A stretch of 64,000 nucleotides of DNA from an uncultured Lachnospiraceae bacterium (GTDB lineage: Bacteria > Bacillota > Clostridia > Lachnospirales > Lachnospiraceae): NCBI GenBank assembly GCA_964428795.1, contig CAYRZL010000003.1, positions 4,999-68,998 of the forward strand. The letters run 5' to 3'. Positions 11,544-31,823 of this stretch are shown one piece after another. The position numbers and the translations under genes were made by a program. Below the pieces are notes generated by a model. That model ran no database searches, was not told the DNA's origin, and was given only the letters and a program-made list of their open reading frames with translations. Position 1 is the stretch's first letter; the number at the start of each line of letters is the position of its first letter.

Positions 11544-11572
11544 TTGACAATAATGAACAACTAGAGTATAAA
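11544..11572 (+). promoter_or_regulatory. Putative promoter of the ABC-ATPase/SPFH unit
   Basis: TTGACA (11544-11549), a 17-nt spacer, then TATAAA (11567-11572), preceded by an A/T-rich UP-like tract. The 17-mer AATATAAAACTTGACAA also occurs upstream of both 880-aa genes. Confidence 0.45.
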
Positions 11573-11674
11573 ATAGTAGTTGATAAGCAAAAATAGAAAT
11601 AAAACAAGTTAATACTTAATAAAACATTATTTAGAAAAAGATTAAAATATCAGAGTGTAAAGAGGCATACAAGT

Positions 11675-12466: not shown

Positions 12467-12544
12467 AACGGAATCAAAGAAAAACATTTCCCTGAGAGGG
12501 AAGAAAGGAGAAGTAATCCATAATCTGCGAAAAATATAAGCGGT

Positions 12545-13549: not shown

Positions 13550-13630
13550 AAATCTGTTTATTGCCGGCTGTGCGGCGATATGCGGCAATAAAAATTCGTG
13601 AACTATAGAACAGTAAAGGAGTGAACACAT

Positions 13631-14437
13631 ATGCCAGGCGGAGGAATCGGAGGAATCGTAGGCAGTCTTGCCGGCGGCATGGGCGGCGGCATGGGCGGCG
13701 GTATGGGCGGCGGCATGATGGGTGGTATGGGCGGTATGAACGGTCAGAACACTCGGAATGCATCGGCCTCTCAGAATAATCAGTCCTCTTATGACGTTTA
13801 TGATGTAGACCGCTGGAAACGTGCGGATGGCATGGATGAATCATCGACAAATGTGCAGATGGTTCGGGATGCCTGGGACAGAAAGGATGCTGAAAAAAAA
13901 GCTGCAAAAAAAGAAAAAGCCCTGTTGAAGAAAAGTAAAAGAAAGATGACAGGTATTTTTGCAAAAAAAGAAAGAAAAGCAGCAGAGGAAGCAGTGTCCG
14001 CTGAAATGGAAAGACCAAGGACGGGTACGATCCATACTTCTGAAATGAAGAAAGCTGAGCACAATATTGAGTCGGTTGAGCCGGCCGGAGGGACTGTATC
14101 TGCCGGTGCGGACAGAATACCGGTATTATTGCAAAATGAGGAGTATATTCAAGGAAAAAGATGTAATTACCTCGGTCTGGAAACACCATCCGGTATCGAG
14201 CCATTTGTAACTTCAAATCCATTAAATTCGGTTATATTGGCTGTTGACAGTTTGTCTATGGGGTCTTTGATGCTGAATCAGGTGAAAAGACCGGAAGGGA
14301 AGCTGCCGGAACATACTGTGCCGGAGAAAGGTTTTTCCGGAACTGCCGGAGAGATGGAGCGTGAATCTGCAACAGATTATATGGATGCTTTTCGTGAAAA
14401 CCGGGAAAACAGAAAATATAGTGTTCATATTGTGTGA
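13631..14437 (+). CDS. Hypothetical protein with a Gly/Met-rich N-terminus and a Lys/Glu-rich middle
   Basis: 268-aa ORF with a good RBS (AAAGGAG). It starts MPGGGIGGIVGSLAGGMGGGMGGGMGGGMMGGMGGM. I recognise no family. Coding status is supported by the RBS, the length and the terminator that follows. Confidence 0.55.
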   Translation: MPGGGIGGIVGSLAGGMGGGMGGGMGGGMMGGMGGMNGQNTRNASASQNNQSSYDVYDVDRWKRADGMDESSTNVQMVRDAWDRKDAEKKAAKKEKALLKKSKRKMTGIFAKKERKAAEEAVSAEMERPRTGTIHTSEMKKAEHNIESVEPAGGTVSAGADRIPVLLQNEEYIQGKRCNYLGLETPSGIEPFVTSNPLNSVILAVDSLSMGSLMLNQVKRPEGKLPEHTVPEKGFSGTAGEMERESATDYMDAFRENRENRKYSVHIV

Positions 14438-14447
14438 TAAAAAAGTG

Positions 14448-14490
14448 AAGTCTTGCGGACGGATGTTCAAAAGGTGCGCAGGACTTTTTT
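14448..14490 (+). terminator. Rho-independent terminator after the Gly/Met-rich ORF
   Basis: Stem aagtcttgcg / cgcaggactt (one G-U pair) followed by a T6 run. It separates the ATPase/SPFH unit from the lipoprotein/permease unit. Confidence 0.65.
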
Positions 14491-14549
14491 GCCGCTGAGA
14501 AGGTGGCAGCATTGGAAAAAGCGGTTGGTTTTTGGAGTGTGTACAGATT

Positions 14550-16388: not shown

Positions 16389-17636
16389 ATGAAGCGGGAC
16401 AGAATGCAGCGGGAAATTCTGGACAATCAGATACGACTGAAGATGAATGAGGGAAAAGACACCGAATTATTTTCCGAGGTAGAGAAGAGACGTTTTTCCA
16501 TGTCGAAAGAGGGGAAACGGTGTCTGATTCTCGGTATAATTCTGGTCGTGGTTTTGATTCTTTCTATTTTTTTCGTGGTGGAGAGTCTGTCTATGTACAC
16601 CTCTCCGGCAATTATGTCGGAGACGGTCATGCGGCGGGTCAGTGATCTGGTGGATATTTTGTCCGGAAACAGAAGCCAGAGCCAGATTCACTGGTTTATC
16701 TTCCAGTTTATATCGGCGGCTGTGGCAGGGATTATGCTGTCCTTGGCAGGAATCTGTTTTCAATCCACATTTCAAAATCCCATGGCTTCTCCGACCATGC
16801 TGGGTGTTCAATCGGGAGGAACCATAGGTTCCCTGATATACTGCACGTTCTTTTTTGTGCCTATGATATCGCCGATGTTGTCCATGGGGTCAAGCAACGG
16901 TCTTGATCTGCTCATGGTGGAATATGAAAATATGTCCATGTTTCAGAAGGTGGGGCAGTATTTCTTTACGCTGGCAGGATGCATGATCGTAGTGATTATC
17001 GTCATGCTCATGGCGAAGGTGGCAGGAAGAGGAAAGATCGCCACGGTGCCTTTGATGGTAGGCGGTACCATCTTCAGCAGCTGTGTTTCAAAAATTATCA
17101 ATCTGGTGGAATATTATGAGACAATCACGGGAGCGGATGAATCCATTATAGAGGAAGTACAGTCCATGCAATCGGGAACCTTTACCCCTATCTGGCAGCC
17201 GCTGATCATGGTGTGTTTTCTGATCACTGCAGTACCGCCGATCATACTGGCGCTGGTAGGCAGAAACAGATTAAATGTCATGACCTACGGAGAAGAGGAG
17301 GCCAGAGCGCTGGGTGTTTCCATCCGTACCACCCGGGTGTATTACATAGTTGTCAGTACTTTATTGACAGCATCTGTTATTGCATTCTGCGGAAATATCG
17401 CTTTTGTTGGTTTGATTGTTCCTCATTTTGCCAGATTTATTGTGGGAAATGATTTCAGACATCTGGTGCCGGCGTCAGCATTTTTGGGAGGGATTTTTAT
17501 GCTGGTCGCATGGGATGTTTCCTATTCGGTGTCTATGGTGGTAAATACAGGAATGATTGTAAGTGTGCTGGGCAGTGTGCTGTTCGCAGTATTTATGATT
17601 GTATACAGGAGGCGCGGAAATGCAGATTGGGCTTAA
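16389..17636 (+). CDS. FecCD-family ABC permease, with a roughly 45-aa cytoplasmic N-terminal extension
   Basis: 415 aa and multi-TM. FecCD signatures NPMASPTMLGVQSGG and GNIAFVGLIVPHFARFIVGNDFRHL. The start codon abuts the lipoprotein gene stop. Confidence 0.85.
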   Translation: MKRDRMQREILDNQIRLKMNEGKDTELFSEVEKRRFSMSKEGKRCLILGIILVVVLILSIFFVVESLSMYTSPAIMSETVMRRVSDLVDILSGNRSQSQIHWFIFQFISAAVAGIMLSLAGICFQSTFQNPMASPTMLGVQSGGTIGSLIYCTFFFVPMISPMLSMGSSNGLDLLMVEYENMSMFQKVGQYFFTLAGCMIVVIIVMLMAKVAGRGKIATVPLMVGGTIFSSCVSKIINLVEYYETITGADESIIEEVQSMQSGTFTPIWQPLIMVCFLITAVPPIILALVGRNRLNVMTYGEEEARALGVSIRTTRVYYIVVSTLLTASVIAFCGNIAFVGLIVPHFARFIVGNDFRHLVPASAFLGGIFMLVAWDVSYSVSMVVNTGMIVSVLGSVLFAVFMIVYRRRGNADWA

Positions 17637-18753
17637 TGAAATCAGAAATATGTGCAAGGCTGACAACCGTCGGCTGAAAAAAAGAATTTGGATCGTGGGG
17701 CTCGTACTGCTGGCTCTTTTCTGTGTATTTGTATGTTCCAGAACGACAGCTCTCGGATTTGTATCCCCTCTGCAGGCGCTGGATAATCTGTTTGTGGCGC
17801 TTAGATTGCAGCTTTCCAGACTTGTGGATGGCGCTTTGTATGCAAACCGGAGACTGGTAATGGCAGATCAGGAATATTATCTGGAAACTCTGGGACGTTT
17901 TCAGGCGGCAGTTACCATCGTGGCTTTGGGAGCGGCGCTGTCTGTAGCGGGAGCAGTGTTTCAGTGTGCGTTTCGCAATCCGATCGCCACACCGTCCATG
18001 ATAGGTACCTCCAGCGGAATCCGGATCATCAATATGATCCTGGTACTGATGTATTCCACGGGAGCTTACACTATGATAAAGGAGAGGATGATCATTTCCT
18101 ATATCGGATCTCTGGTGATACTTGGGATCCTTATGGGAGTGGCAAGGCTCATGTCAAAACAGAGGGTGTCCTCTGCGGATATTCTGCTGATCGGTACGGT
18201 TTTTACCCGTATCGCCATGCAGGTAGTCAGCTATGTACAGGCAAATGTGCTTGAGGATGATGATTATCTGGTGCTGCAGGAACTGAATATATATGGTTCC
18301 GGTACTGGAACTACCAAAGGAGTGGGGATTGCGCTGATCGTGATCGTGGCGGCTCTCATTCCTATTTATCTGACCAGAATGTCCTTAAATACCCTGAGCT
18401 TTGGGGATGAGGATGCCCGTTGCCTGGGCATACGGGCTTCTGTGCTGCGGGGTATATCCCTGATCTGCAGCACGCTGCTGTCCGTATCTACTCTGGTGTA
18501 TCTGGGAGATGTGGGAATGCTCTCCATGCTGATTCCGGTGGTGTGTCGTTATACCTTTGGTTCGGATACCCGGTATCTGCTGGTAGGGAGCGCCTTTTGC
18601 GGGGCATTGCTCATGCTGATCTGCAGAATTATCGTCTCCGCGTTTGCATTTAATGAGTATCTGAGTGTGATATCCATAGGAACCATTGTGGAAGTGATCG
18701 CGGCGCCGCTGATGATATTTGTTATATTCAAAAACAGAAGAGGATGGGAATAA
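17620..18753 (+). CDS. FecCD-family ABC permease (divergent second subunit)
   Basis: Multi-TM, with RNPIATPSMIGTSSG and a degenerate C-terminal FecCD motif (GDVGMLSMLIPVVCRYTFGSDTRYL). The ATG at 17620 follows an AGGAGG RBS and overlaps the upstream stop by 17 nt; the track start is 17599. Confidence 0.8.
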   Translation: MQIGLNEIRNMCKADNRRLKKRIWIVGLVLLALFCVFVCSRTTALGFVSPLQALDNLFVALRLQLSRLVDGALYANRRLVMADQEYYLETLGRFQAAVTIVALGAALSVAGAVFQCAFRNPIATPSMIGTSSGIRIINMILVLMYSTGAYTMIKERMIISYIGSLVILGILMGVARLMSKQRVSSADILLIGTVFTRIAMQVVSYVQANVLEDDDYLVLQELNIYGSGTGTTKGVGIALIVIVAALIPIYLTRMSLNTLSFGDEDARCLGIRASVLRGISLICSTLLSVSTLVYLGDVGMLSMLIPVVCRYTFGSDTRYLLVGSAFCGALLMLICRIIVSAFAFNEYLSVISIGTIVEVIAAPLMIFVIFKNRRGWE

Positions 18754-18756
18754 ACA

Positions 18757-19965
18757 ATGAGAGTGAAACCAACAAAAAGTATGATCGGATATATCATTGT
18801 CCTGATTCTTTCTCTGGCTCCGGCTGTTCTGGTGAACCGTCCGGCGGGATATCTTCCCTTTTTCGCACTGCTGTTCTATGGTATTTTATCTGCGGCACAG
18901 TTGATATTGGTGAAAAAAAAGTTTGCTTTAAGTATTGTCGGCGTGGAGGGAAACTGCTTTCGGAGTGACACGGGAGAGTTTGGTATCTGGATGGAAAATA
19001 AAAGCTGTTTGCCGGTACCAAATATATATGTAAGTTTTTTTATACGAAGCAAAAATGGAAAAGAACGTCACAGCTATCCCATGCACCTTACCATGTCTCC
19101 AAAGGAAAAGAGAAGGTTCGAGGTTGAAGCGGATTTTTCCCATATCGGAATGTTCGAGACAGGTTTGGAAGAACTGAGAATCTATGATCTGCTGGGCATC
19201 ATATGTATGGAATGCCCGGTGGAAGAAGTAAAACAGGTGGCGGTGCTTCCGCGCCAGTATTATCTGGACGATCTGCCGGTCAGTGACGTGGCACTGAATG
19301 AGAGCAACCGCTCAGTGACGGCAGCTTCTCTCTCCGGTTACGATTATACCGGTGTGCGGGAGTACGCTTACGGAGATCCCATGAAAATGATCCAGTGGAA
19401 GCTCACAGCCCACGCCTGTACTTTGGTGACAAAACAGATGGAGAGTTATACAAATGTGGGAATGACAGCGGTTTTGGATTTTAGGATTCCCCCCTATGAG
19501 GCGGATGTCCGCCTGTCCATGCTTGACAGTGTGGCGGAGGCTGGAAGCACTCTTGGGGATTTTGCCAGAAGACAGGGACTTGATTTTGACATGATGTTTT
19601 TCGGACTGGAAGGAAAGCGGCGGGAGATGCCTCATTCTTCGGAAGAGTTCATGCCTTTTTTAGAGGATATTTGTATTGCAGACGGAGACAGGGAATGCAA
19701 TGTGGTTTCTATTTTAAGGGAGGACTGTACCAATGTTCATGGTCAGTCAAACGTTATTTTATGTACCTCATGGCTGGATGAGGAGGTTGTCACCGCATTG
19801 ATTTTCCTGAAGCATTGTGGGAAAAGACCCATGCTGATACTGTTCATGCCGGAGCTGATTCATGACAGGGAAAAGGAAGCCATGCTCAGTCCTATGCATG
19901 TGTTAAGATGCGCGGATATACATACAATGGTAGCTTCGTCCGCAGAAGGGCTGGTGATGGGATGA
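18757..19965 (+). CDS. DUF58 domain protein (vWA-like partner of MoxR ATPases) with N-terminal TM helices
   Basis: 402 aa. DUF58 hallmark GYDYTGVREYAYGDPMKMIQWKLTAH (the ReY..GD....I.WK..A pattern). The start lies 3 nt after the permease stop. Confidence 0.75.
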   Translation: MRVKPTKSMIGYIIVLILSLAPAVLVNRPAGYLPFFALLFYGILSAAQLILVKKKFALSIVGVEGNCFRSDTGEFGIWMENKSCLPVPNIYVSFFIRSKNGKERHSYPMHLTMSPKEKRRFEVEADFSHIGMFETGLEELRIYDLLGIICMECPVEEVKQVAVLPRQYYLDDLPVSDVALNESNRSVTAASLSGYDYTGVREYAYGDPMKMIQWKLTAHACTLVTKQMESYTNVGMTAVLDFRIPPYEADVRLSMLDSVAEAGSTLGDFARRQGLDFDMMFFGLEGKRREMPHSSEEFMPFLEDICIADGDRECNVVSILREDCTNVHGQSNVILCTSWLDEEVVTALIFLKHCGKRPMLILFMPELIHDREKEAMLSPMHVLRCADIHTMVASSAEGLVMG

Positions 19966-21320
19966 AGAAATATTTAACGGGACATATCTGGGAATGGCTG
20001 TTGTGCACTCTGATGTCGGCAACAATGCTCATCACATTTTCGCAGGGATTTTATATTCCGAATAAGGTGGCGGACAGCTTTCCCCTTGCGCTTATTGTAT
20101 CGGCGGTGGTTTTATTCCTTTTGTTGCTCACAGGATACAACCGGGTGGGGATGATCCTGTTTCCCATTTGTCTGGTTTTGCTGGGGATCTGCTTCTTTTT
20201 CTGGCTGAGGATAAATGAAATAGATATTGTGGATAAGGAGGGCAGCGCTACCGCCATATACATCTATTGCTTTGCCGCTATTATTTTTCCGTTGATTACA
20301 TATCTGCTGGCAAGAGGGAGAGTTGGCATCTGCGCCCTGTTTTTGATCGGCATCTGTCTGTTCGGTGTTATAGACTATTTGAATTATGACATGAAAGTCT
20401 GGTGCTGCGCAGTTTTTGTATGCTGCGGACCTGCCCTGTTTGCTCTGCGGATGTATCGGATAAAGTCTTTGCAGGGAAGCGCTTTTGCACCGGAGTTTTT
20501 CAAGCTGTTCCGGACAGCTGTTTTGGTAGGTGTGTTTGCACTGGCACTGGCATTTGCTGTGTATGGAGGGATCATCAGACCCTTGTCCCCGCCTACGGCA
20601 ACGGTGAATCTGGTGACAAAATATATGCGGTGGGAGATACTTGAGAAGACCGGCATCACGGACAGTTATACGGTTCCGGATGAACTGCTGAGTGCAAGAA
20701 ACAAAGACAGCACTACCTCCTCCCAGAAACAGAAGGAAGAGGAAGAAAACGAGGAAGGAAGAGAGCAGCAGAACGGACAGGAGGATGACAGTGACAATCA
20801 GAAAGATACGGACGGAATCAAATCCTCTCTGGGAGATGAAACCGGAGGCGGAGATGGCCAGGAAGTGTATTATAGGATGATCCGTCTCACAGAGATTCTT
20901 CTGGACAAGCTGCCGCTCATTATTATCCTACTGTGTATCGTCATCGTCTGCATACCGTTGTTAAAGTGCTATTTGTGGAAGAAAAAAATAAAACAGGCAT
21001 GGGCGCTGACCGCAACAGAACGGGCTATATGGATGGGAAAATACTATCTGACAAAGTTCAGACGACTTGGGTATAAGCGGCTGCCCTGGCAGACGGAGCG
21101 GGAATATGTACAAAACATGGGAACTACCCTTGGAAACTATACGGAAGGTACCCTTTCCCTGTCAGAACTGATGGAAATATACATAAGAGCAAGATATGGC
21201 GGTGAGGAGCCTACGAGGGAAGAAGATCAGAAGCTGATGGAATTTTACCCTGTGTTTCGGAATAATTACCGCAGAAAGAAAGGCAATATCAATTATTTAC
21301 TGAAATATTTTAAGATATAG
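19962..21320 (+). CDS. Polytopic membrane protein with a C-terminal DUF4129-like domain
   Basis: About 453 aa from the ATG at 19962, which forms an ATGA overlap with the DUF58 stop. It has several N-terminal TM helices and an acidic low-complexity linker. The C-terminal region (LPWQTEREYVQNMG ... IYIRARYGGEEPT) matches the DUF4129 pattern. I can see no transglutaminase Cys-His-Asp core. Confidence 0.6.
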   Translation: MKKYLTGHIWEWLLCTLMSATMLITFSQGFYIPNKVADSFPLALIVSAVVLFLLLLTGYNRVGMILFPICLVLLGICFFFWLRINEIDIVDKEGSATAIYIYCFAAIIFPLITYLLARGRVGICALFLIGICLFGVIDYLNYDMKVWCCAVFVCCGPALFALRMYRIKSLQGSAFAPEFFKLFRTAVLVGVFALALAFAVYGGIIRPLSPPTATVNLVTKYMRWEILEKTGITDSYTVPDELLSARNKDSTTSSQKQKEEEENEEGREQQNGQEDDSDNQKDTDGIKSSLGDETGGGDGQEVYYRMIRLTEILLDKLPLIIILLCIVIVCIPLLKCYLWKKKIKQAWALTATERAIWMGKYYLTKFRRLGYKRLPWQTEREYVQNMGTTLGNYTEGTLSLSELMEIYIRARYGGEEPTREEDQKLMEFYPVFRNNYRRKKGNINYLLKYFKI

Positions 21321-21334
21321 GAGGAAACATTGAA

Positions 21335-22300
21335 ATGGAACAAAACATCTCAGGACTTACAGCTCAGGAAAGTGAATATGCGCTGCGGCTGATAAACAGC
21401 GTAATTGAGAATGTGGAGAAAGAAATCGTGGGCAAGCGTGAGGCCATTGAACTGGTTCTGACTGCGCTTCTGACCCAGGGGCATGTACTTTTGGAGGACG
21501 TACCCGGTGTGGGAAAGACAAGCCTGATCTCTGCGGTTGCAAAGAGTATAGACTGTGGATTCAAACGTATACAGTTCACGCCGGATCTGATGCCATCAGA
21601 TGTGACCGGATTTTCCGTATATAACCAGAAAACCGGAGAATTTGAGTTTCGTCCCGGAGCAGTCATGAGCAATCTGATCCTTGCAGACGAGATCAACCGG
21701 GCATCGGCAAAGACCCAGGCATCTCTCCTGGAAGCAATGGAGGAAAAACAGGTGACAGTAGATTCCATGACTTACAAACTGGAACCGCCCTTTATGGTCA
21801 TGGCAACCCAGAATCCGGTGGAGTCTTTCGGAACCTACCCGCTGCCTGAAGCTCAGATCGATCGTTTTGTACTAAAACTCAAAATTGGTTATCCAAGCGT
21901 GGAGGAGGAGCAGCAGATCATACATGCAAAATCCACAGGCGGTGCGGAATTGTCGGCAGTCATCACCAGAGATGAGGTAATCTGGCTGACACAGATCGCG
22001 ACGAAGGTTTATATGGATAAGGATATTGAGCGATATATCGTGGAGCTGGTATCTGCTACCCGGACAAATTCAAAGGTAACACTTGGATCCTCGCCCCGTG
22101 GTTCTATCGCTCTGAGCAGGACCGCGAAGGTAAGAGCACTGTTTTCAGGGAGAGGATATGTAATCCCGGATGATGTGAAATATATGGCGCCTTATGTGCT
22201 GGCACATCGTCTGATACTCAGTCACGAGGCAAAAGCGCAGCGAATCATGCCGGAGAAAATTATAAAGGAAATTCTGGACAGTGTGATCGCACCATCCTAA
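21335..22300 (+). CDS. MoxR-family AAA+ ATPase
   Basis: 321 aa. Walker A EDVPGVGKTS and Walker B LILADEINRA. The size and C-terminal lid region are typical of MoxR (AAA_3). Confidence 0.9.
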   Translation: MEQNISGLTAQESEYALRLINSVIENVEKEIVGKREAIELVLTALLTQGHVLLEDVPGVGKTSLISAVAKSIDCGFKRIQFTPDLMPSDVTGFSVYNQKTGEFEFRPGAVMSNLILADEINRASAKTQASLLEAMEEKQVTVDSMTYKLEPPFMVMATQNPVESFGTYPLPEAQIDRFVLKLKIGYPSVEEEQQIIHAKSTGGAELSAVITRDEVIWLTQIATKVYMDKDIERYIVELVSATRTNSKVTLGSSPRGSIALSRTAKVRALFSGRGYVIPDDVKYMAPYVLAHRLILSHEAKAQRIMPEKIIKEILDSVIAPS

Positions 22301-22318: not shown

Positions 22319-25300
22319 ATGAATGGAATAATTGTAAGGTCAGGAGCCTTTGTTCTGGCGGCAGCACTGGCTCTGCAGATGGGAAGCTATGCTTCCATGA
22401 ATACTTATGCAGCGGAAGACGAAACAGATACTTTGGTATTGACTGATCCCGTAATCGATACAGAATCAGAGGAAGCTGCATCCATGAACTCCGGACAGAT
22501 TGTCACCTATGATTGTGTATGGTTTGGCAGTTATCCACAGGCGGAGGTGGTATCCTCTGATATGGCGTCTATTGATGAGGATGGAAATGTGTCTCTGCTT
22601 TCTTACGCTATGATCGGCGGGGATTATATCAGATCCGATGATCTGATCGTAGATGATGAGGCTTATGCGAAGCTCACTGCGGCTGAGGAGTCTGAGTGGA
22701 GCGAAGATGGGGACATTACCATCGACGGTGAGACATACCGCAGGCTTTCCTCTGACGATGCGACAACTGCGTCCACAAATACAACCGGAGGATATTATTA
22801 TTGGGCAAATGATGAGGATAGGTATCATTATTTCAAGTATGAGCCTGTTAAATGGAGGGTGCTTTCCGTGGATGAGGACAGCAATCAGGCATTACTCATG
22901 GCAGACATCTGTCTGGATGACCAGCCTTATTATGTGAATTCCGCGACCAGTGCTGTGTCAGGTGTCACCTATGATGTGAGTACCATTCGCAGTTGGCTCA
23001 ATGGTTATGGTAAAAGTGAAAATAAAAAATCAAAAGACTATACAAAGTCCAATTTCATGGATGCGGCATTTTCCGCAGCGGAGAGAGCTGCCATCCCACT
23101 GACCACCGTAAAAAACACAGCATCCATGCTTCAGTCAAATGTGGCGAGCGGTGATGACACGGAGGATTATATTTTCCTTCCTTCTGATCAGGAAATGTTT
23201 CAGTATAACGATATCATCACAGATGCTTTCACCTATGGTTTTGCGGAAGATTACAACACTGCGGATGAGGGCAGACAGCGCCAGGCCAGTGCCTATGCCA
23301 GAGCTATGGGAGCATTTTCCGGAAATGCAAACTATCCGTATAATTGTGCCTATTTTCTGAGAACTACAGTTTATAACAGTACGGTTGGCAATACCACTTA
23401 TACAACAGCAAAATTTGTGAATCAGATAACGTACAGCGGAGCAGTCAGCGCAGTAAACAATGTGAGTCGTAATGTGGGCGTGTGTCCGGCATTGTATCTG
23501 GATCTTTCAAAAACAAATCTGTACAGCTATGCTGGAACCGTCAGCACAGACGGTACAATGTCAGAGACGGAAAACGACAGAATTTCCATCGCCCAGGCAG
23601 ATATTATCCTTTCTCTGCCGGAGGACGGTTATGTCTATACAGGGGATGAAATAACACAGGAGATCACTGTCTCCTATAAAGAGGAGATTCTGAGCGAAGG
23701 ACTGGATTATCAGATTAGTTATACAAACAACGTTTCCGCGGGAACAGCCGAGGTGACGGTGAGCGGAATCGGAGATTACATGGGATCTGTCACAAAAACC
23801 TTTGTGATTAGCGGTACCGATATATCCGATGCAGCGGTCACTTTGGAGTACGACAGTGTATCCTATGACATTTTTGACGTATCCCCAAAAACACCGGCAG
23901 TTACCTCCGTTGTTCTGGGGGACGCTGTCCTGCCTGAAAATACATACACTGTGTCTTATGAAGATAATGTTGAACTGGGAACAGCCACAGTGATTGTGAC
24001 CGGAAATAATGAGGCAGGATATACAGGAGAAACAACCGCTGCCTTTGAGATCGTGAAAGATATCATAACCCTGGAGGAGACTGATATAGATGAGCCAAAA
24101 CAGGATGAAGAAGCAGGGACGGTTACCTGGGACTGCGTATGGTTTGGCAGTTATCCACAGGCGGAGGTGATCACGCAGGAGATGTCTGAGGAGTATCAGG
24201 TGTATTATGCGCGGTATGGCGGCATAGGTTCAAACAACGGGGCAGTGCTGGATACCGTTCAGGATGGAGATACCATTGTAGATGATGAGTTATATGCGGC
24301 ATTAAAGGGTTCACAGGATTGGGATTCCAACAATGATCTCATTCTCGGAGGAGTGAAATATCACCGGCTCAGAGGATTGAATGCCACAACAAAATATGCA
24401 GAAAAAACGTCAGGCTATTATATCTGGGAGAATATGACTACCTACCATTATTTCAAATATGAACCGGTCAAATGGCGGGTGCTTTCCGTGGATGAAGAAA
24501 ATGATCAGATGCTGCTGCTTTCGGACAAGATTCTGGATACACAACTATACAATAGTGTAAATAAAAAGGTGACCTGGGCAGGCAGTACGATCCGTAGCTG
24601 GTTAAACGGGTATTCGAATTTGAAAAATGATTACGGAACTGACTATAGATCCCAGAATTTTTCAGATCAGGCATTTTCGGATAACGAGCAGGAGGTTCTT
24701 GTGAAAAACCGTATTACAGCTCCGGAAGGTACGTCCAGTGTTACGGACAGAATATTCTTCCTCTCGGAAGAGAACATAAAAAATGGAGCTTATGGAACTT
24801 TAAAAGACGCCTTGAGAAGCAAAAGCAGCACTTATGCCAAAGCAATGGGGCTGTACAGTGCTATTCCCTCAAACGGAAGAGATACTGCTTCTCTGAATTA
24901 CTGTAACTGGTGGACACTCAGTTGGTATTCAGGAATTATCAGCGGTAAAAATGTTACTTCCTATGCAACAAATGCGGGAATCAGCCGGGAAGTGAGTCTG
25001 GGAATCGATGTGAATACCGGTTATATCGGTGTGCGCCCGGCGCTGATTCTGGATACCTCCGCAGAGCAGTATGGCTATGCAGGAACAGTCAGCTCGAACG
25101 GAATTATAAGGGAACAGGAGGAGACCACCTCTCTGGCAGCAGCTCTTGTGGATTTTGAGGAGAACCTTTCCGAAGAATCCGGCGAGGAGATTTTGGAAGG
25201 TATGACCGTGTACTTGAATGGACAGATACTGGAAAAAGACGTGGATTATAAGGCGGCTTTTCATAAAACTGTAACGGAGCAGGGGCAGACAGAGATACTC

Positions 25301-25978
25301 ATCACGATTACCGGATGCGGTAATTACAATGGCTATGCCAGCGTTTCTTATCCGGAAACCGCAGAGGAAGAGGAGGAACCGGATGATGATCTGAATCATG
25401 CTGCGGTGGATAACGGTCTTGCCAATGAGGCAGATGCAGACGGAAACTGGTATTACTATACAGATGGCAGGATAGATACGTCATACACTGGATTTGCTGC
25501 AAACAAGAATGGCAGCTGGTATGTGACAAAGGGAAAGGTTACCTTTAAAGATAACAGTGTAATCAAAGATGCTTCAGGCGCTATTGGAACGAAGGGAACC
25601 TGGTACTATGTAGTTGGAAGTAAGGTGCAGACCTCCTACACCGGCGTGGCAGATTACAAAAATGCAAATGGCTGGTGGTATATAAAGAAAGGAAAGGTGG
25701 ACTTTAGCGCAAACACCGTAGCAAAGAACAAAAATGGCTGGTGGTATATAAAGAAAGGAAAGGTGGACTTTAGCGCAAACACTGTAGCAAACAACAAAAA
25801 TGGCTGGTGGTATGTAGTTGGCGGAAAAGTACAGTTTGACTATACTGGTGTAGCGAACTACAAGAATGCAAATGGCTGGTGGTACATTAAGAAAGGAAAG
25901 GTAGACTTTACCTATACAGGAAAGGCGAAGAACAAGAATGGCACCTGGAATGTTGTAAAAGGAAAAGTGGTTTTCTGA
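22319..25978 (+). CDS. Large secreted surface protein: 2x DUF6273-like domains, Ig-like repeats and C-terminal cell-wall-binding (CW_binding_1-like) repeats
   Basis: 1219 aa with a signal peptide. Two copies of the module VWFGSYPQAEV ... YHYFKYEPVKWRVLSVD ... STIRSWLNGY ... VCPALYLD / VRPALILD. Repeats of the YTG..IT..ITVSY ... GTAEVTVSG type follow. The C-terminal repeats are about 20-22 aa each (NGWWYIKKGKVDF ...). Confidence 0.8.
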   Translation: MNGIIVRSGAFVLAAALALQMGSYASMNTYAAEDETDTLVLTDPVIDTESEEAASMNSGQIVTYDCVWFGSYPQAEVVSSDMASIDEDGNVSLLSYAMIGGDYIRSDDLIVDDEAYAKLTAAEESEWSEDGDITIDGETYRRLSSDDATTASTNTTGGYYYWANDEDRYHYFKYEPVKWRVLSVDEDSNQALLMADICLDDQPYYVNSATSAVSGVTYDVSTIRSWLNGYGKSENKKSKDYTKSNFMDAAFSAAERAAIPLTTVKNTASMLQSNVASGDDTEDYIFLPSDQEMFQYNDIITDAFTYGFAEDYNTADEGRQRQASAYARAMGAFSGNANYPYNCAYFLRTTVYNSTVGNTTYTTAKFVNQITYSGAVSAVNNVSRNVGVCPALYLDLSKTNLYSYAGTVSTDGTMSETENDRISIAQADIILSLPEDGYVYTGDEITQEITVSYKEEILSEGLDYQISYTNNVSAGTAEVTVSGIGDYMGSVTKTFVISGTDISDAAVTLEYDSVSYDIFDVSPKTPAVTSVVLGDAVLPENTYTVSYEDNVELGTATVIVTGNNEAGYTGETTAAFEIVKDIITLEETDIDEPKQDEEAGTVTWDCVWFGSYPQAEVITQEMSEEYQVYYARYGGIGSNNGAVLDTVQDGDTIVDDELYAALKGSQDWDSNNDLILGGVKYHRLRGLNATTKYAEKTSGYYIWENMTTYHYFKYEPVKWRVLSVDEENDQMLLLSDKILDTQLYNSVNKKVTWAGSTIRSWLNGYSNLKNDYGTDYRSQNFSDQAFSDNEQEVLVKNRITAPEGTSSVTDRIFFLSEENIKNGAYGTLKDALRSKSSTYAKAMGLYSAIPSNGRDTASLNYCNWWTLSWYSGIISGKNVTSYATNAGISREVSLGIDVNTGYIGVRPALILDTSAEQYGYAGTVSSNGIIREQEETTSLAAALVDFEENLSEESGEEILEGMTVYLNGQILEKDVDYKAAFHKTVTEQGQTEILITITGCGNYNGYASVSYPETAEEEEEPDDDLNHAAVDNGLANEADADGNWYYYTDGRIDTSYTGFAANKNGSWYVTKGKVTFKDNSVIKDASGAIGTKGTWYYVVGSKVQTSYTGVADYKNANGWWYIKKGKVDFSANTVAKNKNGWWYIKKGKVDFSANTVANNKNGWWYVVGGKVQFDYTGVANYKNANGWWYIKKGKVDFTYTGKAKNKNGTWNVVKGKVVF

Positions 25979-26012
25979 TTAAAAATCAATTAAAAATAAA
26001 ACAATATAAAAC

Positions 26013-26042
26013 TTGACAAAACTTATCTATTATTGATATAAA
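26013..26042 (+). promoter_or_regulatory. Putative promoter of 880-aa surface protein gene copy 1
   Basis: TTGACA (26013-26018), a 17/18-nt spacer, then ATATAA/TATAAA (26036-26042). An AT-rich UP-like tract lies upstream. Confidence 0.45.
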
Positions 26043-26152
26043 TATAGTTGTATTACATAATGAACATGTAAAAACATTACAAAAATAGAAAAAAGTCATC
26101 AATGGAGAGATCTATTTATGAAATAATTTTTTTATGAGGAGGTTGTTAACCT

Positions 26153-28795
26153 ATGAAATTAGAAAAAGTCAAGAAAATAGGTATCAGTCTGACTGTGGCT
26201 GCTACGATGGTAGCCCCCTCGCTGACATCTATCACAGCGAGTGCAGCGTCAGATTACGAGATTGCATTTCCAACGGAATCTATGAGTGTGGAAACCACGG
26301 ATTCAGAGGGGCGCGAAATTATGACAACGCTGACCCAGCGTGCCGCTTCCGAAATCCCGCTGATATTCGGAGTCAATGTTATCTCAGGTAACATGTTCAG
26401 CGGTCTGCAGTATCTGGCTGGTACATCCGTAAATGAAAATCCGGATCCGTATCTCTGGAATTACAACTATATGCAGGAGACCGGAAAGGAAGATCTGCCA
26501 AAAGGTACTTATTATGAGAATATTGGTAATGATCTGACAAATCCAAACGGACTGTATCAGAGCGGCGGCGGAAACCAGGCTTATGGACAGTCTGTGGAAT
26601 CCCTTGGAGGAGTGGGATACGCAGTGGGTTATCGTACCGACGTTGTATTTAGCTTTAATTCCATCCTGGTAGATCAGATTGACTGGGTACGCAGTCTGAA
26701 GCCCGGAGATACGTATTATCAGGAAGGTGATGAGAACTACAGCCCTCTTTTGGCAGATGTTCAGACCGCCGGCGTATCGGCTCGTCTTTATTCATGGACA
26801 GATCTGGGAAGTGCTCTGTCCGCTTACTTGGAAGAGCATACGGATCTGACCACCCGTTATGACGATCCGGAGATTATCGGTAATGATGTGGCACAGTTCT
26901 CAGCAGGTATCCCGTATTATATCGCATCCCTGATTGCGGACGGTACTATTGAAAAGAAGACAGCGGCTTATGTCAGTGCAATTGATGAGTATACTCTGAC
27001 ATGTACGAATCCTGCCGCTGCAGGAAATGTAGCTGCCGATGTATATGCAGAGGTTTGCAACTTTAATTATATAACTGGAGACTATACGATAGAAAAATTG
27101 ATGGAGGAGGATGTGGATCTGATCATTCTGGCAGCCAGCGGTTATGGTTATGCTAACTCGGGAAACTCTGGCGGAGCTACCGGCGGTGTCGGTGGTCCTG
27201 GCGGCGGCGGAGCCGCAAACACTTCCTCCAAACTGGACATCCTGAATGCAATCGAAGCCTTGGGTTATACTGCTGATGAGACTCCGTTGGTAATGGATTC
27301 CAATACAGTCAGCGTACAGCTTGGCAACAATGGTTACAACTTCTCCCCGATCACTCCAATGTTTATGCCTTATGTACAGACTTATGCTTATATGGATGAG
27401 CTGGCAGAAGTGAATGAGGCGATCAATCCGGTAGCCATGGTAGTATTTATGATGGATGAGCTGGCTCACGTTACCGATGAGGCCTGCAAAGATGTTGCAT
27501 TGTACTATATCGGAAGCAAATGGGATTCTGTAGACAGCGAATACGACAGAGTACCGGATCTGGAGAATTATGTGTATGATAAAGATGCGATCATCGATGC
27601 AATCTATGACGGTGTAAATTATGCATTGTCCGGCGAGGCAGAGGAAAACGGAAACTATCTGATGCCTGCTTACAGAGCAACAGAGACAGCATACCAACTT
27701 CTGACAGAGTCTTCCACCACAGAGATTCCGGAAGAAGGTCATGATTATGTTACGGTAGAAGTGAATGGCGTAACAAAATATCTGGATCTGACAGCTTTGA
27801 TTGCATCTGACAGTGATGATGCAGATGATTCAGAGGATGATTCCGAAAGCGACGGAAACAATGAGTTTAACTATGATGATATTCGTACAAGCTATGAAGC
27901 AATCATCGATTACTACAACACAAGCGAGTATGGCTATGGCGATGACCTTCAGACAACACTCCAGAATTATGCTGACCATATGGTATTGCATGTATGGGAG
28001 CCGGATTTATCTGTAGAGGGATCTTATGTATATGATGATGAATCAGGTGATGATGAAGTTGTAATTGAAGATGGTCTTACTGATACAGCAGCTGAAGACG
28101 GAAACTGGTATTACTACACAGATGGGGAGGTAAATACCTCCTATACCGGATTTGCTGAAAATAAAAATGGAAGCTGGTATGTGGAAAATGGTAGAGTTAC
28201 ATTCAAAACCAACAGTGTAATCAAAGACACCACAGGAGCTATCGGAACAAAGGGATCCTGGTATTATGTAGTAGGAAGTAAAGTCCGGACGGATTATACC
28301 AACGTAGCAAACTATAAGAATGCAAATGGCTGGTGGTACATCAAGAATGGTAAGGTAGACTTTACATATACCGGATTTGCATCCAACAAAAACGGCAGCT
28401 GGTATGTAGAAAAAGGTCAGGTTAAGTTCAATAAAAACAGTGTAATTAAAGATACCAAAGGAACTATTGGAACAAAAGGAACCTGGTATTATGTAGTAGG
28501 AAGTAAAGTTCAGACCAGTTATACCGGCGTAGCAAACTACAAGAATGCAAATGGCTGGTGGTACATCAAGAACGGTAAGGTAGACTTTAGTGCAAACACT
28601 GTAGCAAAGAACAAAAATGGCTGGTGGTATGTAGTTGGCGGAAAAGTACAGTTTGACTATACTGGTGTAGCGAACTACAAGAATGCAAATGGCTGGTGGT
28701 ACATTAAGAAAGGAAAGGTAGACTTTACCTATACAGGAAAGGCGAAGAACAAGAATGGCACCTGGAATGTTGTAAAAGGAAAAGTGGTTTTCTGA
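26153..28795 (+). CDS. Secreted wall-anchored protein of unknown function, copy 1: novel roughly 600-aa N-terminal domain, acidic linker and CWB repeats
   Basis: 880 aa with a strong RBS (GAGGAGG) and a signal peptide (KKIGISLTVAATMVAPSLTSITASAAS). I recognise no catalytic motif. The C-terminal repeats are of the WYY/WWYIKNGKVDF type. The last 47 aa are identical to the C-terminus of the preceding 1219-aa protein. Confidence 0.8.
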   Translation: MKLEKVKKIGISLTVAATMVAPSLTSITASAASDYEIAFPTESMSVETTDSEGREIMTTLTQRAASEIPLIFGVNVISGNMFSGLQYLAGTSVNENPDPYLWNYNYMQETGKEDLPKGTYYENIGNDLTNPNGLYQSGGGNQAYGQSVESLGGVGYAVGYRTDVVFSFNSILVDQIDWVRSLKPGDTYYQEGDENYSPLLADVQTAGVSARLYSWTDLGSALSAYLEEHTDLTTRYDDPEIIGNDVAQFSAGIPYYIASLIADGTIEKKTAAYVSAIDEYTLTCTNPAAAGNVAADVYAEVCNFNYITGDYTIEKLMEEDVDLIILAASGYGYANSGNSGGATGGVGGPGGGGAANTSSKLDILNAIEALGYTADETPLVMDSNTVSVQLGNNGYNFSPITPMFMPYVQTYAYMDELAEVNEAINPVAMVVFMMDELAHVTDEACKDVALYYIGSKWDSVDSEYDRVPDLENYVYDKDAIIDAIYDGVNYALSGEAEENGNYLMPAYRATETAYQLLTESSTTEIPEEGHDYVTVEVNGVTKYLDLTALIASDSDDADDSEDDSESDGNNEFNYDDIRTSYEAIIDYYNTSEYGYGDDLQTTLQNYADHMVLHVWEPDLSVEGSYVYDDESGDDEVVIEDGLTDTAAEDGNWYYYTDGEVNTSYTGFAENKNGSWYVENGRVTFKTNSVIKDTTGAIGTKGSWYYVVGSKVRTDYTNVANYKNANGWWYIKNGKVDFTYTGFASNKNGSWYVEKGQVKFNKNSVIKDTKGTIGTKGTWYYVVGSKVQTSYTGVANYKNANGWWYIKNGKVDFSANTVAKNKNGWWYVVGGKVQFDYTGVANYKNANGWWYIKKGKVDFTYTGKAKNKNGTWNVVKGKVVF

Positions 28796-28829
28796 TTAAA
28801 AATCAATTAAAAATAAAACAATATAAAAC

Positions 28830-28859
28830 TTGACAAAACTTATCTATTATTGATATAAA
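28830..28859 (+). promoter_or_regulatory. Putative promoter of 880-aa surface protein gene copy 2
   Basis: Exact duplicate of 26013-26042, offset by 2,817 bp. Confidence 0.45.
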
Positions 28860-28969
28860 TATAGTTGTATTACATAATGAACATGTAAAAACATTACAAA
28901 AATAGAAAAAAGTCATCAATGGAGAGATCTATTTATGAAATAATTTTTTTATGAGGAGGTTGTTAACCT

Positions 28970-31612
28970 ATGAAATTAGAAAAAGTCAAGAAAATAGGTA
29001 TCAGTCTGACTGTGGCTGCTACGATGGTAGCCCCCTCGCTGACATCTATCACAGCGAGTGCAGCGTCAGATTACGAGATTGCATTTCCAACGGAATCTAT
29101 GAGTGTGGAAACCACGGATTCAGAGGGGCGCGAAATTATGACAACGCTGACCCAGCGTGCCGCTTCCGAAATCCCGCTGATATTCGGAGTCAATGTTATC
29201 TCAGGTAACATGTTCAGCGGTCTGCAGTATCTGGCTGGTACATCCGTAAATGAAAATCCGGATCCGTATCTCTGGAATTACAACTATATGCAGGAGACCG
29301 GAAAGGAAGATCTGCCAAAAGGTACTTATTATGAGAATATTGGTAATGATCTGACAAATCCAAACGGACTGTATCAGAGCGGCGGCGGAAACCAGGCTTA
29401 TGGACAGTCTGTGGAATCCCTTGGAGGAGTGGGATACGCAGTGGGTTATCGTACCGACGTTGTATTTAGCTTTAATTCCATCCTGGTAGATCAGATTGAC
29501 TGGGTACGCAGTCTGAAGCCCGGAGATACGTATTATCAGGAAGGTGATGAGAACTACAGCCCTCTTTTGGCAGATGTTCAGACCGCCGGCGTATCGGCTC
29601 GTCTTTATTCATGGACAGATCTGGGAAGTGCTCTGTCCGCTTACTTGGAAGAGCATACGGATCTGACCACCCGTTATGACGATCCGGAGATTATCGGTAA
29701 TGATGTGGCACAGTTCTCAGCAGGTATCCCGTATTATATCGCATCCCTGATTGCGGACGGTACTATTGAAAAGAAGACAGCGGCTTATGTCAGTGCAATT
29801 GATGAGTATACTCTGACATGTACGAATCCTGCCGCTGCAGGAAATGTAGCTGCCGATGTATATGCAGAGGTTTGCAACTTTAATTATATAACTGGAGACT
29901 ATACGATAGAAAAATTGATGGAGGAGGATGTGGATCTGATCATTCTGGCAGCCAGCGGTTATGGTTATGCTAACTCGGGAAACTCTGGCGGAGCTACCGG
30001 CGGTGTCGGTGGTCCTGGCGGCGGCGGAGCCGCAAACACTTCCTCCAAACTGGACATCCTGAATGCAATCGAAGCCTTGGGTTATACTGCTGATGAGACT
30101 CCGTTGGTAATGGATTCCAATACAGTCAGCGTACAGCTTGGCAACAATGGTTACAACTTCTCCCCGATCACTCCAATGTTTATGCCTTATGTACAGACTT
30201 ATGCTTATATGGATGAGCTGGCAGAAGTGAATGAGGCGATCAATCCGGTAGCCATGGTAGTATTTATGATGGATGAGCTGGCTCACGTTACCGATGAGGC
30301 CTGCAAAGATGTTGCATTGTACTATATCGGAAGCAAATGGGATTCTGTAGACAGCGAATACGACAGAGTACCGGATCTGGAGAATTATGTGTATGATAAA
30401 GATGCGATCATCGATGCAATCTATGACGGTGTAAATTATGCATTGTCCGGCGAGGCAGAGGAAAACGGAAACTATCTGATGCCTGCTTACAGAGCAACAG
30501 AGACAGCATACCAACTTCTGACAGAGTCTTCCACCACAGAGATTCCGGAAGAAGGTCATGATTATGTTACGGTAGAAGTGAATGGCGTAACAAAATATCT
30601 GGATCTGACAGCTTTGATTGCATCTGACAGTGATGATGCAGATGATTCAGAGGATGATTCCGAAAGCGACGGAAACAATGAGTTTAACTATGATGATATT
30701 CGTACAAGCTATGAAGCAATCATCGATTACTACAACACAAGCGAGTATGGCTATGGCGATGACCTTCAGACAACACTCCAGAATTATGCTGACCATATGG
30801 TATTGCATGTATGGGAGCCGGATTTATCTGTAGAGGGATCTTATGTATATGATGATGAATCAGGTGATGATGAAGTTGTAATTGAAGATGGTCTTACTGA
30901 TACAGCAGCTGAAGACGGAAACTGGTATTACTACACAGATGGGGAGGTAAATACCTCCTATACCGGATTTGCTGAAAATAAAAATGGAAGCTGGTATGTG
31001 GAAAATGGTAGAGTTACATTCAAAACCAACAGTGTAATCAAAGACACCACAGGAGCTATCGGAACAAAGGGATCCTGGTATTATGTAGTAGGAAGTAAAG
31101 TCCGGACGGATTATACCAACGTAGCAAACTATAAGAATGCAAATGGCTGGTGGTACATCAAGAATGGTAAGGTAGACTTTACATATACCGGATTTGCATC
31201 CAACAAAAACGGCAGCTGGTATGTAGAAAAAGGTCAGGTTAAGTTCAATAAAAACAGTGTAATTAAAGATACCAAAGGAACTATTGGAACAAAAGGAACC
31301 TGGTATTATGTAGTAGGAAGTAAAGTTCAGACCAGTTATACCGGCGTAGCAAACTACAAGAATGCAAATGGCTGGTGGTACATCAAGAACGGTAAGGTAG
31401 ACTTTAGTGCAAACACTGTAGCAAAGAACAAAAATGGCTGGTGGTATGTAGTTGGCGGAAAAGTACAGTTTAACTATACAGGTGTAGCAAACTACAAGAA
31501 TGCAAATGGCTGGTGGTACATTAAGAACGGTAAGGTAGACTTTACCTACACCGGAAGAGCAAGCAACAAGAACGGTACATGGAATGTGGTAAAAGGAAAA
31601 GTAAAATTCTAA
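28970..31612 (+). CDS. Secreted wall-anchored protein of unknown function, copy 2
   Basis: 880 aa. Identical to copy 1 through residue 834. Nucleotide identity ends at 31471 and the first amino-acid difference is residue 835 (D in copy 1, N here). Only the last roughly 46 aa differ (QFNYTG...GRASNKNGTWNVVKGKVKF). Confidence 0.8.
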   Translation: MKLEKVKKIGISLTVAATMVAPSLTSITASAASDYEIAFPTESMSVETTDSEGREIMTTLTQRAASEIPLIFGVNVISGNMFSGLQYLAGTSVNENPDPYLWNYNYMQETGKEDLPKGTYYENIGNDLTNPNGLYQSGGGNQAYGQSVESLGGVGYAVGYRTDVVFSFNSILVDQIDWVRSLKPGDTYYQEGDENYSPLLADVQTAGVSARLYSWTDLGSALSAYLEEHTDLTTRYDDPEIIGNDVAQFSAGIPYYIASLIADGTIEKKTAAYVSAIDEYTLTCTNPAAAGNVAADVYAEVCNFNYITGDYTIEKLMEEDVDLIILAASGYGYANSGNSGGATGGVGGPGGGGAANTSSKLDILNAIEALGYTADETPLVMDSNTVSVQLGNNGYNFSPITPMFMPYVQTYAYMDELAEVNEAINPVAMVVFMMDELAHVTDEACKDVALYYIGSKWDSVDSEYDRVPDLENYVYDKDAIIDAIYDGVNYALSGEAEENGNYLMPAYRATETAYQLLTESSTTEIPEEGHDYVTVEVNGVTKYLDLTALIASDSDDADDSEDDSESDGNNEFNYDDIRTSYEAIIDYYNTSEYGYGDDLQTTLQNYADHMVLHVWEPDLSVEGSYVYDDESGDDEVVIEDGLTDTAAEDGNWYYYTDGEVNTSYTGFAENKNGSWYVENGRVTFKTNSVIKDTTGAIGTKGSWYYVVGSKVRTDYTNVANYKNANGWWYIKNGKVDFTYTGFASNKNGSWYVEKGQVKFNKNSVIKDTKGTIGTKGTWYYVVGSKVQTSYTGVANYKNANGWWYIKNGKVDFSANTVAKNKNGWWYVVGGKVQFNYTGVANYKNANGWWYIKNGKVDFTYTGRASNKNGTWNVVKGKVKF

Positions 31613-31786: not shown

Positions 31787-31823
31787 AAGGGCGTTCCAAG
31801 TAACTGGAATGCCCTTCTTTATT
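31787..31823 (+). terminator. Terminator-like hairpin in the leader of the GS-III gene (possible attenuator)
   Basis: Stem aagggcgttcca / tggaatgccctt (12 bp, one G-U pair) with a 6-nt loop, followed by cTTTaTT. It lies about 120 nt upstream of the glutamine synthetase ATG. Confidence 0.5.

Follow-up and report, generated by a model that had tools for sequence, protein, structure and literature searches.

The two adjacent genes encoding 880-aa surface proteins in this Lachnospiraceae genome likely arose by a genuine tandem duplication, with a unit of 2,817 bp, that is present in at least part of the sequenced population. In the window, the whole 64,000-nucleotide stretch of DNA that was analysed, positions 25793-28654 and 28610-31471 form one unbroken identical run of 2,862 bp, with no mismatches in a base-by-base comparison at an offset of 2,817. 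The identity and period given in the original prediction are exact, and the base-by-base alignment it proposed as a check contains no scattered substitutions, only this single uninterrupted run. Mismatches lie directly outside the run, at 25792 and 28655. An identity of 2.8 kb cannot have arisen by chance, and the repeat is the sole exact repeat longer than 760 bp across the whole 2.96-Mb assembly.

Repeat structure and a putative crossover site

The repeat has the layout A-S-T-S-T-S-C, in which a 45-bp segment (S) occurs three times and a 2,772-bp unit (T) occurs twice, with a period of 2,817 bp. There are n+1 copies of S for n units, and the 45-mer occurs exactly three times (at 25793, 28610 and 31427), versus none expected in shuffled sequences. 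The tandem unit is contiguous, direct and head-to-tail, as is characteristic of a tandem duplication. The features of the locus are as follows.

14532-22300, + strand: upstream cluster encoding a 618-aa binding-protein-like protein (weak Peripla_BP_2 match), two FecCD permeases, DUF58, DUF4129 and a MoxR AAA_3 ATPase (Pfam matches)
22319-25978, + strand: gene encoding a secreted protein of 1219 aa, with two stretches matched to DUF6273 and choline-binding repeats at the C terminus; putative upstream recombination partner via its 3' end (Pfam matches, ORF comparison)
25793-25837, + strand: S1, the first 45-bp segment and left repeat edge (exact comparison, k-mer count, tail alignment)
25838-28609, + strand: unit T copy 1, 2,772 bp, with the 1219-type tail, stop, 174-bp spacer and 880-aa gene body (exact comparison)
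25979-26152, + strand: spacer 1, AT-rich, with a promoter-like TTGATA-17-CATAAT (26033-26061) and a GAGGAGG ribosome-binding site before the ATG (consensus matches only)
26153-28795, + strand: 880-aa gene copy 1, chimeric, with its own body and the last 46 codons and stop of 1219 type (exact and ORF comparison)
28610-28654, + strand: S2, the duplication junction, with the 880-aa body end upstream and the 1219-type tail downstream (exact comparison)
28655-31426, + strand: unit T copy 2, the same as copy 1 (exact comparison)
28796-28969, + strand: spacer 2, identical to spacer 1, with a promoter-like site at 28850-28878 (exact comparison and consensus match)
28970-31612, + strand: 880-aa gene copy 2, with a presumed native tail (exact and ORF comparison)
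31427-31471, + strand: S3, the third 45-bp segment and right repeat edge (exact comparison)
31787-31816, + strand: terminator-like hairpin with a 12-bp stem, after copy 2 (hairpin scan)

The two 880-aa ORFs differ at 21 nucleotides, all of which are located inside the final 141 nt, and the proteins differ by five residue changes (D835N, K853N, K863R, K865S and V879K). Copy 1 ends with the same 61 residues and stop as the 1219-aa gene, and the chimeric ORF remains open. The architecture proposed for this copy in the original prediction is thus correct, but its 1219-specific tail consists of 46 codons and the stop (141 nt), not 47 codons and the stop. The 174-bp spacer is repeated as well, as had also been claimed, since 25979-26152 falls within the identity block, and each 880-aa copy retains its own spacer and ribosome-binding site. 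Promoter-like sites show no enrichment over shuffles, and those in the spacers are consensus matches only. Between 25700 and 32000 on the + strand, no terminator-like sites are present in either spacer; apart from the hairpin that follows copy 2, the only such sites are a weak 5-bp stem at 26768 in copy 1 and another at 29585 in copy 2.

No exact match between the repeat-coding 3' ends of the 1219-aa and 880-aa genes is longer than the S segment (45 bp, versus 38 bp for the next longest), and S sits within approximately 250 bp of in-register similarity that is roughly 88% identical, as counted from an alignment of the two tails. Because the edges of the repeat coincide with copies of S, and because S is the longest match between the tails and is in register, the locus carries the signature of homology-mediated unequal exchange. 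The earlier placement of the crossover at this segment, within repeats shared by both genes, is well supported by the tail alignment.

The ancestral locus would have contained gene 1219 followed by a single 880-aa gene, in the layout A-S-T-S-C, with both genes ending in choline-binding-repeat codons and with the identical 45-bp S in common. From this layout, A-S-T-S-T-S-C would result when S on one chromosome copy is joined to the other S on its sister, either through unequal homologous recombination or through template switching. A second complete gene has been gained together with a spacer, a promoter-like site and a ribosome-binding site of its own, and the upstream copy has acquired the end of its neighbour. 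The founding event would be rare because a stretch of 45 bp is short for RecA-type recombination to act on. Once established, the duplication would raise the dose of the protein, and the resulting 2.8-kb direct repeat would be able to lose or gain copies at high frequency. Recombination between repeats is known to generate duplications, which then revert or are amplified at rates of 1e-3 to 1e-1 per cell per generation (PMC13732712). From this general knowledge of duplications, the dosage switch or ongoing copy-number variation suggested in the original prediction is plausible.

The nearest relatives (L020 and L024) lack gene 1219 at the equivalent position and have one 880-aa homologue directly after MoxR, which points to the presence of two adjacent genes with the same anchor as a lineage-specific arrangement. 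The best homologue of the 880-aa protein is 66% identical, and there is no second strain of the same species among the matches. A tandem pair of homologues is found in one Anaerovoracaceae locus (L018), at 7187-9739 and 9923-12382. These copies share 86% identity at both the DNA and the protein level and group as sisters in the tree (100/100 support), indicating an independent duplication. Tandem copies of this family thus arise and are kept elsewhere.

Assembly and alternative explanations

The reading of copy number and identity depends on how the genome was assembled. There are 58 contig-end overlaps (29 pairs) of exactly 55 bp, from which a short-read de Bruijn assembly with a final k of 55 can be recognized. 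The assembly contains 31 scaffold gaps of 100 N, and its N50 is 25 kb. A completeness of 86% in 203 contigs points to a metagenome bin; if so, the junction could come from a minority strain. Telling the contexts of S apart requires 47 bases, namely S and the flanking mismatches at -1 and +1. With k = 55, every 55-mer across S therefore identifies its context, and a single-copy locus would be an unbranched path without a loop. A false loop would take a shared segment at least as long as k, and S, at 45 bp, is shorter. By this de Bruijn logic, the back junction must stem from reads, and it is most likely, given the assembler's k, that the sequence joining gene end, S and unit start is derived from real ones.

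It is probable that a single graph edge gave rise to both printed copies. If one edge is traversed twice, then "zero divergence" and "exactly two copies" are properties of the assembly and not measurements, and a printed copy number of 2 corresponds to the smallest path in which the back edge is used. The earlier claim that zero divergence implies a very recent event thus does not follow, as identity is largely built into a k = 55 de Bruijn assembly, and neither copy number nor age can be fixed from short-read data of this kind. A more general caution follows for perfect tandem repeats in such assemblies: they show that a junction exists, but neither the number of the copies nor their age. No leftover contig of the genome contains T or an alternative junction. 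Only one public run contains part of the stretch, from a diverged relative, in short contigs with approximately 3-6% other letters, none of which bridges the junction.

Several other explanations can be considered. The assembly artefact allowed for in the original prediction would involve a single-copy A-S-T-S-C locus in which a false loop, or the joining of T-containing paths, printed the unit twice. Choline-binding-repeat regions of this draft, which was scaffolded from short reads, contain many breaks and gaps, the repeat is the only long exact one in the assembly, and perfect identity is expected from a graph edge used twice. Library chimeras between homologous repeats can also yield false junction reads. 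However, the two S sites of a single-copy locus have no 55-mer in common, k being longer than the 47 bases needed, and no loop would form without real junction reads. Assemblers normally remove low-coverage chimeric edges, and they normally collapse tandem repeats rather than expand them; amplifications are described as hard to assemble from short reads (PMC11721125). The independent Anaerovoracaceae pair, moreover, makes the event biologically ordinary for this gene family. An artefact is thus unlikely.

It may instead be that an old duplicate pair, neither recent nor dynamic, has been kept identical by repeated gene conversion (concerted evolution). The retention of a tandem pair in the Anaerovoracaceae locus is compatible with this model, as are the choline-binding-repeat tails of neighbouring genes, which are mosaic and approximately 85-97% alike, suggesting past sequence exchange; a small divergence would also be masked by the assembly method. 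Yet there is no difference in 2,862 bp, non-coding spacer included, identity stops precisely at the boundaries of S, a pattern left by a single exchange rather than by patchy conversion, and the retained Anaerovoracaceae pair has itself diverged to 86%. These observations make concerted evolution distinctly improbable. Finally, the junction could be real and the chromosome single-copy, with the reads coming from excised T-S circles, a by-product of deletion between S copies. Recombination between direct repeats does give a circle with exactly this joining of gene end, S and unit start. The unit, however, comprises only the tail of one gene, a spacer and the greater part of a single surface-protein gene, with no recognisable replication function, and circles unable to replicate would be far too scarce to pass assembly filters. 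The corresponding deletion junction, in which the body of gene 1219 would be joined via S to the native tail, is absent from all contigs, and circles of this kind are barely credible as the source of the junction. A chromosomal tandem duplication remains the preferred reading. Overall, the pair of choline-binding-repeat proteins is best explained by an ordinary gene duplication of a known, textbook kind, which is in itself of modest interest.

The duplicated protein and its gene neighbourhood

The 880-aa protein begins with a basic stretch, a hydrophobic stretch and then ASA, which by eye resembles a signal peptide. Choline_bind_4 (PF21540) matches both copies with an E value of 2e-41 and 135-138 bits, against a cut-off of 27, over six stretches per copy; gene 1219 scores 111 bits with the same profile. 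For the domain of approximately 600 aa, there is no Pfam match even at E 10, including to the PF01497 Peripla_BP_2 profile, no NCBIfam match and no meaningful PDB sequence match. For the AlphaFold model (pLDDT 88, pTM 0.90), the top 50 Foldseek and VIA-align matches are all class III binding proteins. The best of these is CeuE, with a Z score of 10.6 and 258 of 300 residues aligned to model residues 24-430, and the high rmsd (5-7 Å) indicates that the relationship is distant. The protein is probably secreted and cell-wall-anchored, with a domain whose predicted fold is that of class III substrate-binding proteins, the siderophore, haem and corrinoid class.

The same set of cluster genes adjoins 880-aa homologues in 11 of 14 genome loci. 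Two FecCD genes are present inside the window, and linkage to FecCD is a feature of class III binding proteins. From the fold and gene neighbourhood, the 880-aa protein probably captures ligands at the surface for the adjoining FecCD-type importer, and the separate 618-aa protein of the cluster, with its weak binding-protein match, may be the transporter's own partner. The amplified gene is a member of an unnamed family in which a double-sized binding-protein-like domain occurs on various wall anchors.

The family is of interest because it belongs to the core of an importer cluster that is conserved in gut Clostridia and unstudied, and the fact that it has been duplicated more than once hints that its dose is important for the cell. 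Choline-binding-repeat DNA is common to many genes of the present genome (58 DNA matches). In a broader model, which we regard as doubtful, adjacent surface-protein genes would have a recombination substrate built into them, in the form of the wall-anchor repeat codons that they share. Such a substrate would provide a reversible dosage (and deletion) switch for the wall-anchored ligand-capture protein of a FecCD/DUF58/DUF4129/MoxR import system in gut Clostridia, reused in independent lineages, now in the present genome and earlier in the L018 lineage. If copy number does vary in natural populations, the locus would represent natural amplification-based tuning of expression outside the setting of antibiotic resistance.

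Comparison with known systems

The pneumococcal choline-binding proteins are the classic case of proteins with choline-binding repeats. Like these and other cell-wall-binding repeat proteins of Firmicutes, the 880-aa protein has a C-terminal array of aromatic-rich repeats of approximately 20 residues and is predicted to be retained at the wall. Its functional domain, however, is not among their known enzymatic or adhesin modules. That domain is instead comparable to the class III (cluster A) binding proteins CeuE, YiuA, FepB and BtuF and the haem-binding ShuT and BhuT (PDB 4inp, 6b2y, 4mo9, 1n4a, 2r7a and 5giz), with fold Z scores of 8-10.6 and 230-280 residues aligned, covering most of each known protein, and genes of the 880-aa family are likewise linked to FecCD permeases. 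The domain differs in its size, which is approximately double, in its large insertions and in an additional region of approximately 170 residues, and the protein has a wall anchor rather than a lipid anchor or a free periplasmic form.

In the Isd haem relay of Staphylococcus aureus, wall-held capture proteins with NEAT domains and sortase anchoring hand their ligand to a membrane ABC importer. The logic proposed here would be similar, with a wall-held protein capturing a ligand outside the cell and feeding a FecCD-type importer. Fold and anchoring are different in the two systems, and the comparison is one of analogous mechanism, not membership.

The L018 pair belongs to the same protein family, has the same orientation and a similar period (approximately 2.65 kb), and adjoins the same gene cluster. 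At 86% identity, though, it is old and retained, and its anchor appears to be an S-layer-homology domain. Bacterial gene duplication-amplification by recombination between direct repeats was reportedly described by Anderson and Roth in 1977 and by Reams and Roth in 2015. Such duplication-amplification is also reviewed in PMC13732712 and PMC11721125. Unlike duplications between IS elements or rRNA operons, the present one has as its repeats 45 bp of identity in the wall-anchor codons of two adjacent surface-protein genes, and repeat-coding DNA that is common to many genes can serve as a recombination substrate. In its other features it resembles the known process: the repeat is head-to-tail, the join point is common to both endpoints, a whole gene is included with its expression signals, and the repeat would be expected to be unstable and to change gene dose.

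Structure of the repeat and the proposed exchange at S

With the window shifted against itself by 2,817 bp, 25793-28654 is identical to 28610-31471 in an unbroken 2,862-bp run, bounded by mismatches at 25792 and 28655, the bases directly outside. The region reads A-S-T-S-T-S-C, in which the 45-mer S occurs exactly three times (none is expected from shuffles).

Elements of the repeat region
A: body of the 1219-aa gene (whole gene 22319-25978)
S: 45-mer, at 25793, 28610 and 31427
T: 2,772 bp, running from the final 46 codons of the 1219-aa gene, with their stop, through the 174-bp spacer and into the 880-aa gene as far as S
C: native tail of the 880-aa gene (its presumed own 3' end)

The two copies of the 880-aa open reading frame (26153-28795 and 28970-31612) differ by 21 nucleotides, all inside the final 141 nt, giving five residue changes, and the 61 C-terminal residues of copy 1 match those of the 1219-aa protein without a difference. 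The tandem identity claimed in the original prediction, with its period of 2,817 bp, is borne out base by base, without a mismatch over 2,862 bp. Its account of copy 1 as a chimera carrying the end of the preceding gene is also correct, except that the tail comprises 46 codons plus the stop where 47 codons had been counted. By consensus matches only, the AT-rich spacer that precedes each copy contains a promoter-like TTGATA-17-CATAAT and a ribosome-binding site, GAGGAGG, and the sole strong terminator-like hairpin lies after copy 2, at 31787-31816. The neighbouring 1219-aa protein (22319-25978) is itself internally duplicated, with two DUF6273-containing halves that share similar sequence blocks such as WFGSYPQAEV and HYFKYEPVKWRVLSVDE.

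When the 3' end of the 1219-aa gene is aligned with the native one of the 880-aa gene, the longest exact match is S, at 45 bp, followed by matches of 38, 32 and 30 bp. S sits in register in a similar stretch of ~250 bp, with an identity of roughly 88% as counted from the printed alignment. Both repeat edges coincide exactly with copies of S. The predicted crossover at this segment therefore holds up: S is the longest match of the two tails, and the repeat starts and ends there. These coincidences support reading the edges as the putative footprint of one unequal exchange. A single event at S between sister chromosomes, by homologous recombination or template switching, would suffice, and its reciprocal product would delete the 880-aa gene.

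The window's protein forms a clade (support 100/99) with its nearest relatives, at the Clostridia loci L020 and L024, where a single homologue directly follows MoxR and the 1219-aa gene has no counterpart. The adjacent pair of genes with one type of anchor is therefore lineage-specific, and its appearance created the recombination substrate. The genome is rich in choline-binding-repeat DNA: 58 matches were counted, with identities of up to 94%.

Junction and copy number in the assembly

The draft genome comprises 203 contigs (86% complete, N50 25 kb). Its 31 gaps, each exactly 100 N, indicate that the assembly was scaffolded. Several of these gaps lie inside or adjoin choline-binding-repeat regions (contigs C1, C11, C23, C37 and others of this genome, G000), and surface-protein genes are therefore systematically under-assembled. 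Contigs C67 and C81 are linked by a 757-bp repeat with 99.5% identity. In 58 cases (29 pairs), the overlap between contig ends is exactly 55 bp long; other lengths are almost never seen. This pattern is characteristic of de Bruijn graph assemblies whose final k was 55.

This value of k bears on the pure assembly artefact that the original prediction had offered as one explanation, in which the second copy would be a product of the assembler. In a single-copy locus, the bases adjoining S on either side would differ between the two S sites, so that any 55-mer across S identifies its own context. By graph logic, such a locus should form a simple unbranched path at k=55, and a loop should require real reads joining the body of the 880-aa gene through S to the 1219-type tail, the junction at 28610-28654. 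Among the genome's contigs, there is no spare contig with T or an alternative junction. Both points tell against an artefact, which the distinct contexts of S make rather improbable. A strain with a merely gene-converted tail was also considered as the source of the loop and dropped, because it would need another junction to return to the native sequence downstream; such a strain would give a bubble, not a 2.8-kb loop.

A genuine duplication junction is thus the preferred reading, and the same graph logic limits what the printed copies convey. Once the back junction exists, both copies would be printed from one graph edge, small differences between true copies would probably be merged, and two passes would be the fewest that cover all edges. 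Since the same edge serves for both copies, neither the perfect identity nor the copy number is a measurement. The argument that zero divergence implies a very recent event is accordingly not sustained: the identity would largely come with the k=55 graph, in which one edge is printed twice.

A search of public sequencing runs found a single run with matches, a 2016 run coded X1, which contains 20% of the words. Aligned to a repeat-free permutation of the unit (27250-30050), its contigs are short, low-depth sequences of a diverged relative, placed on 29302-29950, of which the two longest differ at ~3-6% of letters over the N-terminal domain; the run also yields assorted choline-binding-repeat fragments. 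This degree of difference over part of the domain means that a related strain or species is present in at least one other sample. No X1 contig bridged the junction, and these contigs carry no information on junction, depth or copy number. Contigs from Logan, which uses k=31, would in any case break at S. Exact-protein look-ups with the 1219-aa protein and copy 2 returned no other contig, and the N-terminal domain had no match outside its own genome among 40 relatives' genomes, none of the same genus. The best relatives in the protein search are 66% identical, and a scan of metagenome contigs gave distant relatives only, at 26-31%.

The duplicated protein and its neighbourhood

Regions of the 880-aa protein
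N-terminus: signal-peptide-like, judged by eye
Central domain: ~600 residues, without a Pfam, NCBIfam or PDB sequence match
Anchor: six choline-binding repeats (PF21540, E 2e-41)

Searches of Pfam (to E 10), NCBIfam, PDB sequences and ESM Atlas features gave nothing usable for naming the N-terminal domain. The same domain occurs on other anchors in forty-odd homologues (38-66% identical), most of which carry S-layer-homology domains and some FIVAR or FG-GAP-like regions. An AlphaFold model from the homologue alignment is confident (pLDDT 88, pTM 0.90). All of the top 50 Foldseek matches are class III substrate-binding proteins, as are the top 50 after realignment, and they include CeuE, YiuA, FepB, BtuF and haem-binding proteins. 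The best match has a Z of 10.6, with 258 of 300 residues aligned over a span of model residues 24-430. Given the high rmsd and a size double that of a usual domain of this class, it is predicted to be a distant, expanded class III relative by fold, and its sequence does not place it in the family. A Gly/Ser/Asn-rich loop in mid-domain, at residues ~300-327 (27050-27130 and 29867-29947), is the one long stretch modelled with low confidence (pLDDT <50).

Upstream of the 880-aa gene are six genes, encoding a 618-aa protein with a weak binding-protein match, two FecCD permeases, DUF58, DUF4129 and MoxR, with an ABC ATPase and an SPFH gene slightly further upstream; the whole set lies within 11675-22300. 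Among 14 loci of other Clostridia genomes (Oscillospiraceae, Lachnospiraceae and Anaerovoracaceae), 11 have an 880-aa homologue beside the same gene set in permuted orders (noted at L014-L018 and L020-L024), often adjoined by the ABC ATPase and SPFH genes. Such linkage is good evidence that the 880-aa protein may work with the FecCD importer, and its likeliest role would be to capture, at the wall, a ligand of the siderophore, haem or corrinoid class. Paralogy with the cluster's own 618-aa protein was rejected, as BLASTP found no significant similarity between the two. At one locus, L017 (JAITNL010000223.1), the complete Clostridia-type cluster and a ~51% identical homologue occur in a bin labelled Accumulibacter (Pseudomonadota), probably a binning or labelling error. 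Within the library searched, no paper treats FecCD together with MoxR or DUF58.

Comparison with other gene duplications

Two tandem copies of this gene family, with a period of ~2.65 kb, are also found at the Anaerovoracaceae locus L018 (7187-12382). The identity between them is 86% both in DNA, over 2,545 bp, and in protein, and they group as sisters in the tree (support 100/100). This pair is independent of the window's duplication, and tandem duplication of the gene has therefore occurred before and been kept. The genomes of L022 and L025/L026 each have two distant paralogues, ~37% identical.

For duplications in choline-binding-repeat genes, a literature search found only unrelated eukaryotic work. 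More generally, duplications arise via recombination between existing repeats, and their subsequent reversion or amplification has a frequency of 1e-3 to 1e-1 per cell per generation (PMC13732712). At such rates, a duplication abundant enough to appear in an assembly would be young, maintained by selection, or the product of a clonal bloom. On the same general grounds, the dosage switch or ongoing copy-number variation suggested in the original prediction would be plausible.

Among known systems, the event belongs with ordinary duplication-amplification of genes. It is less typical in that the shared sequence consists of anchor-repeat codons from two adjacent genes for surface proteins, and in that the duplicated gene comes from an unnamed family of binding-protein-like proteins. 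These two features do not make the duplication a new kind of system. Its mechanism is ordinary and its quantitative features are not vouched for by the assembly; the protein family and its cluster are the more interesting part.
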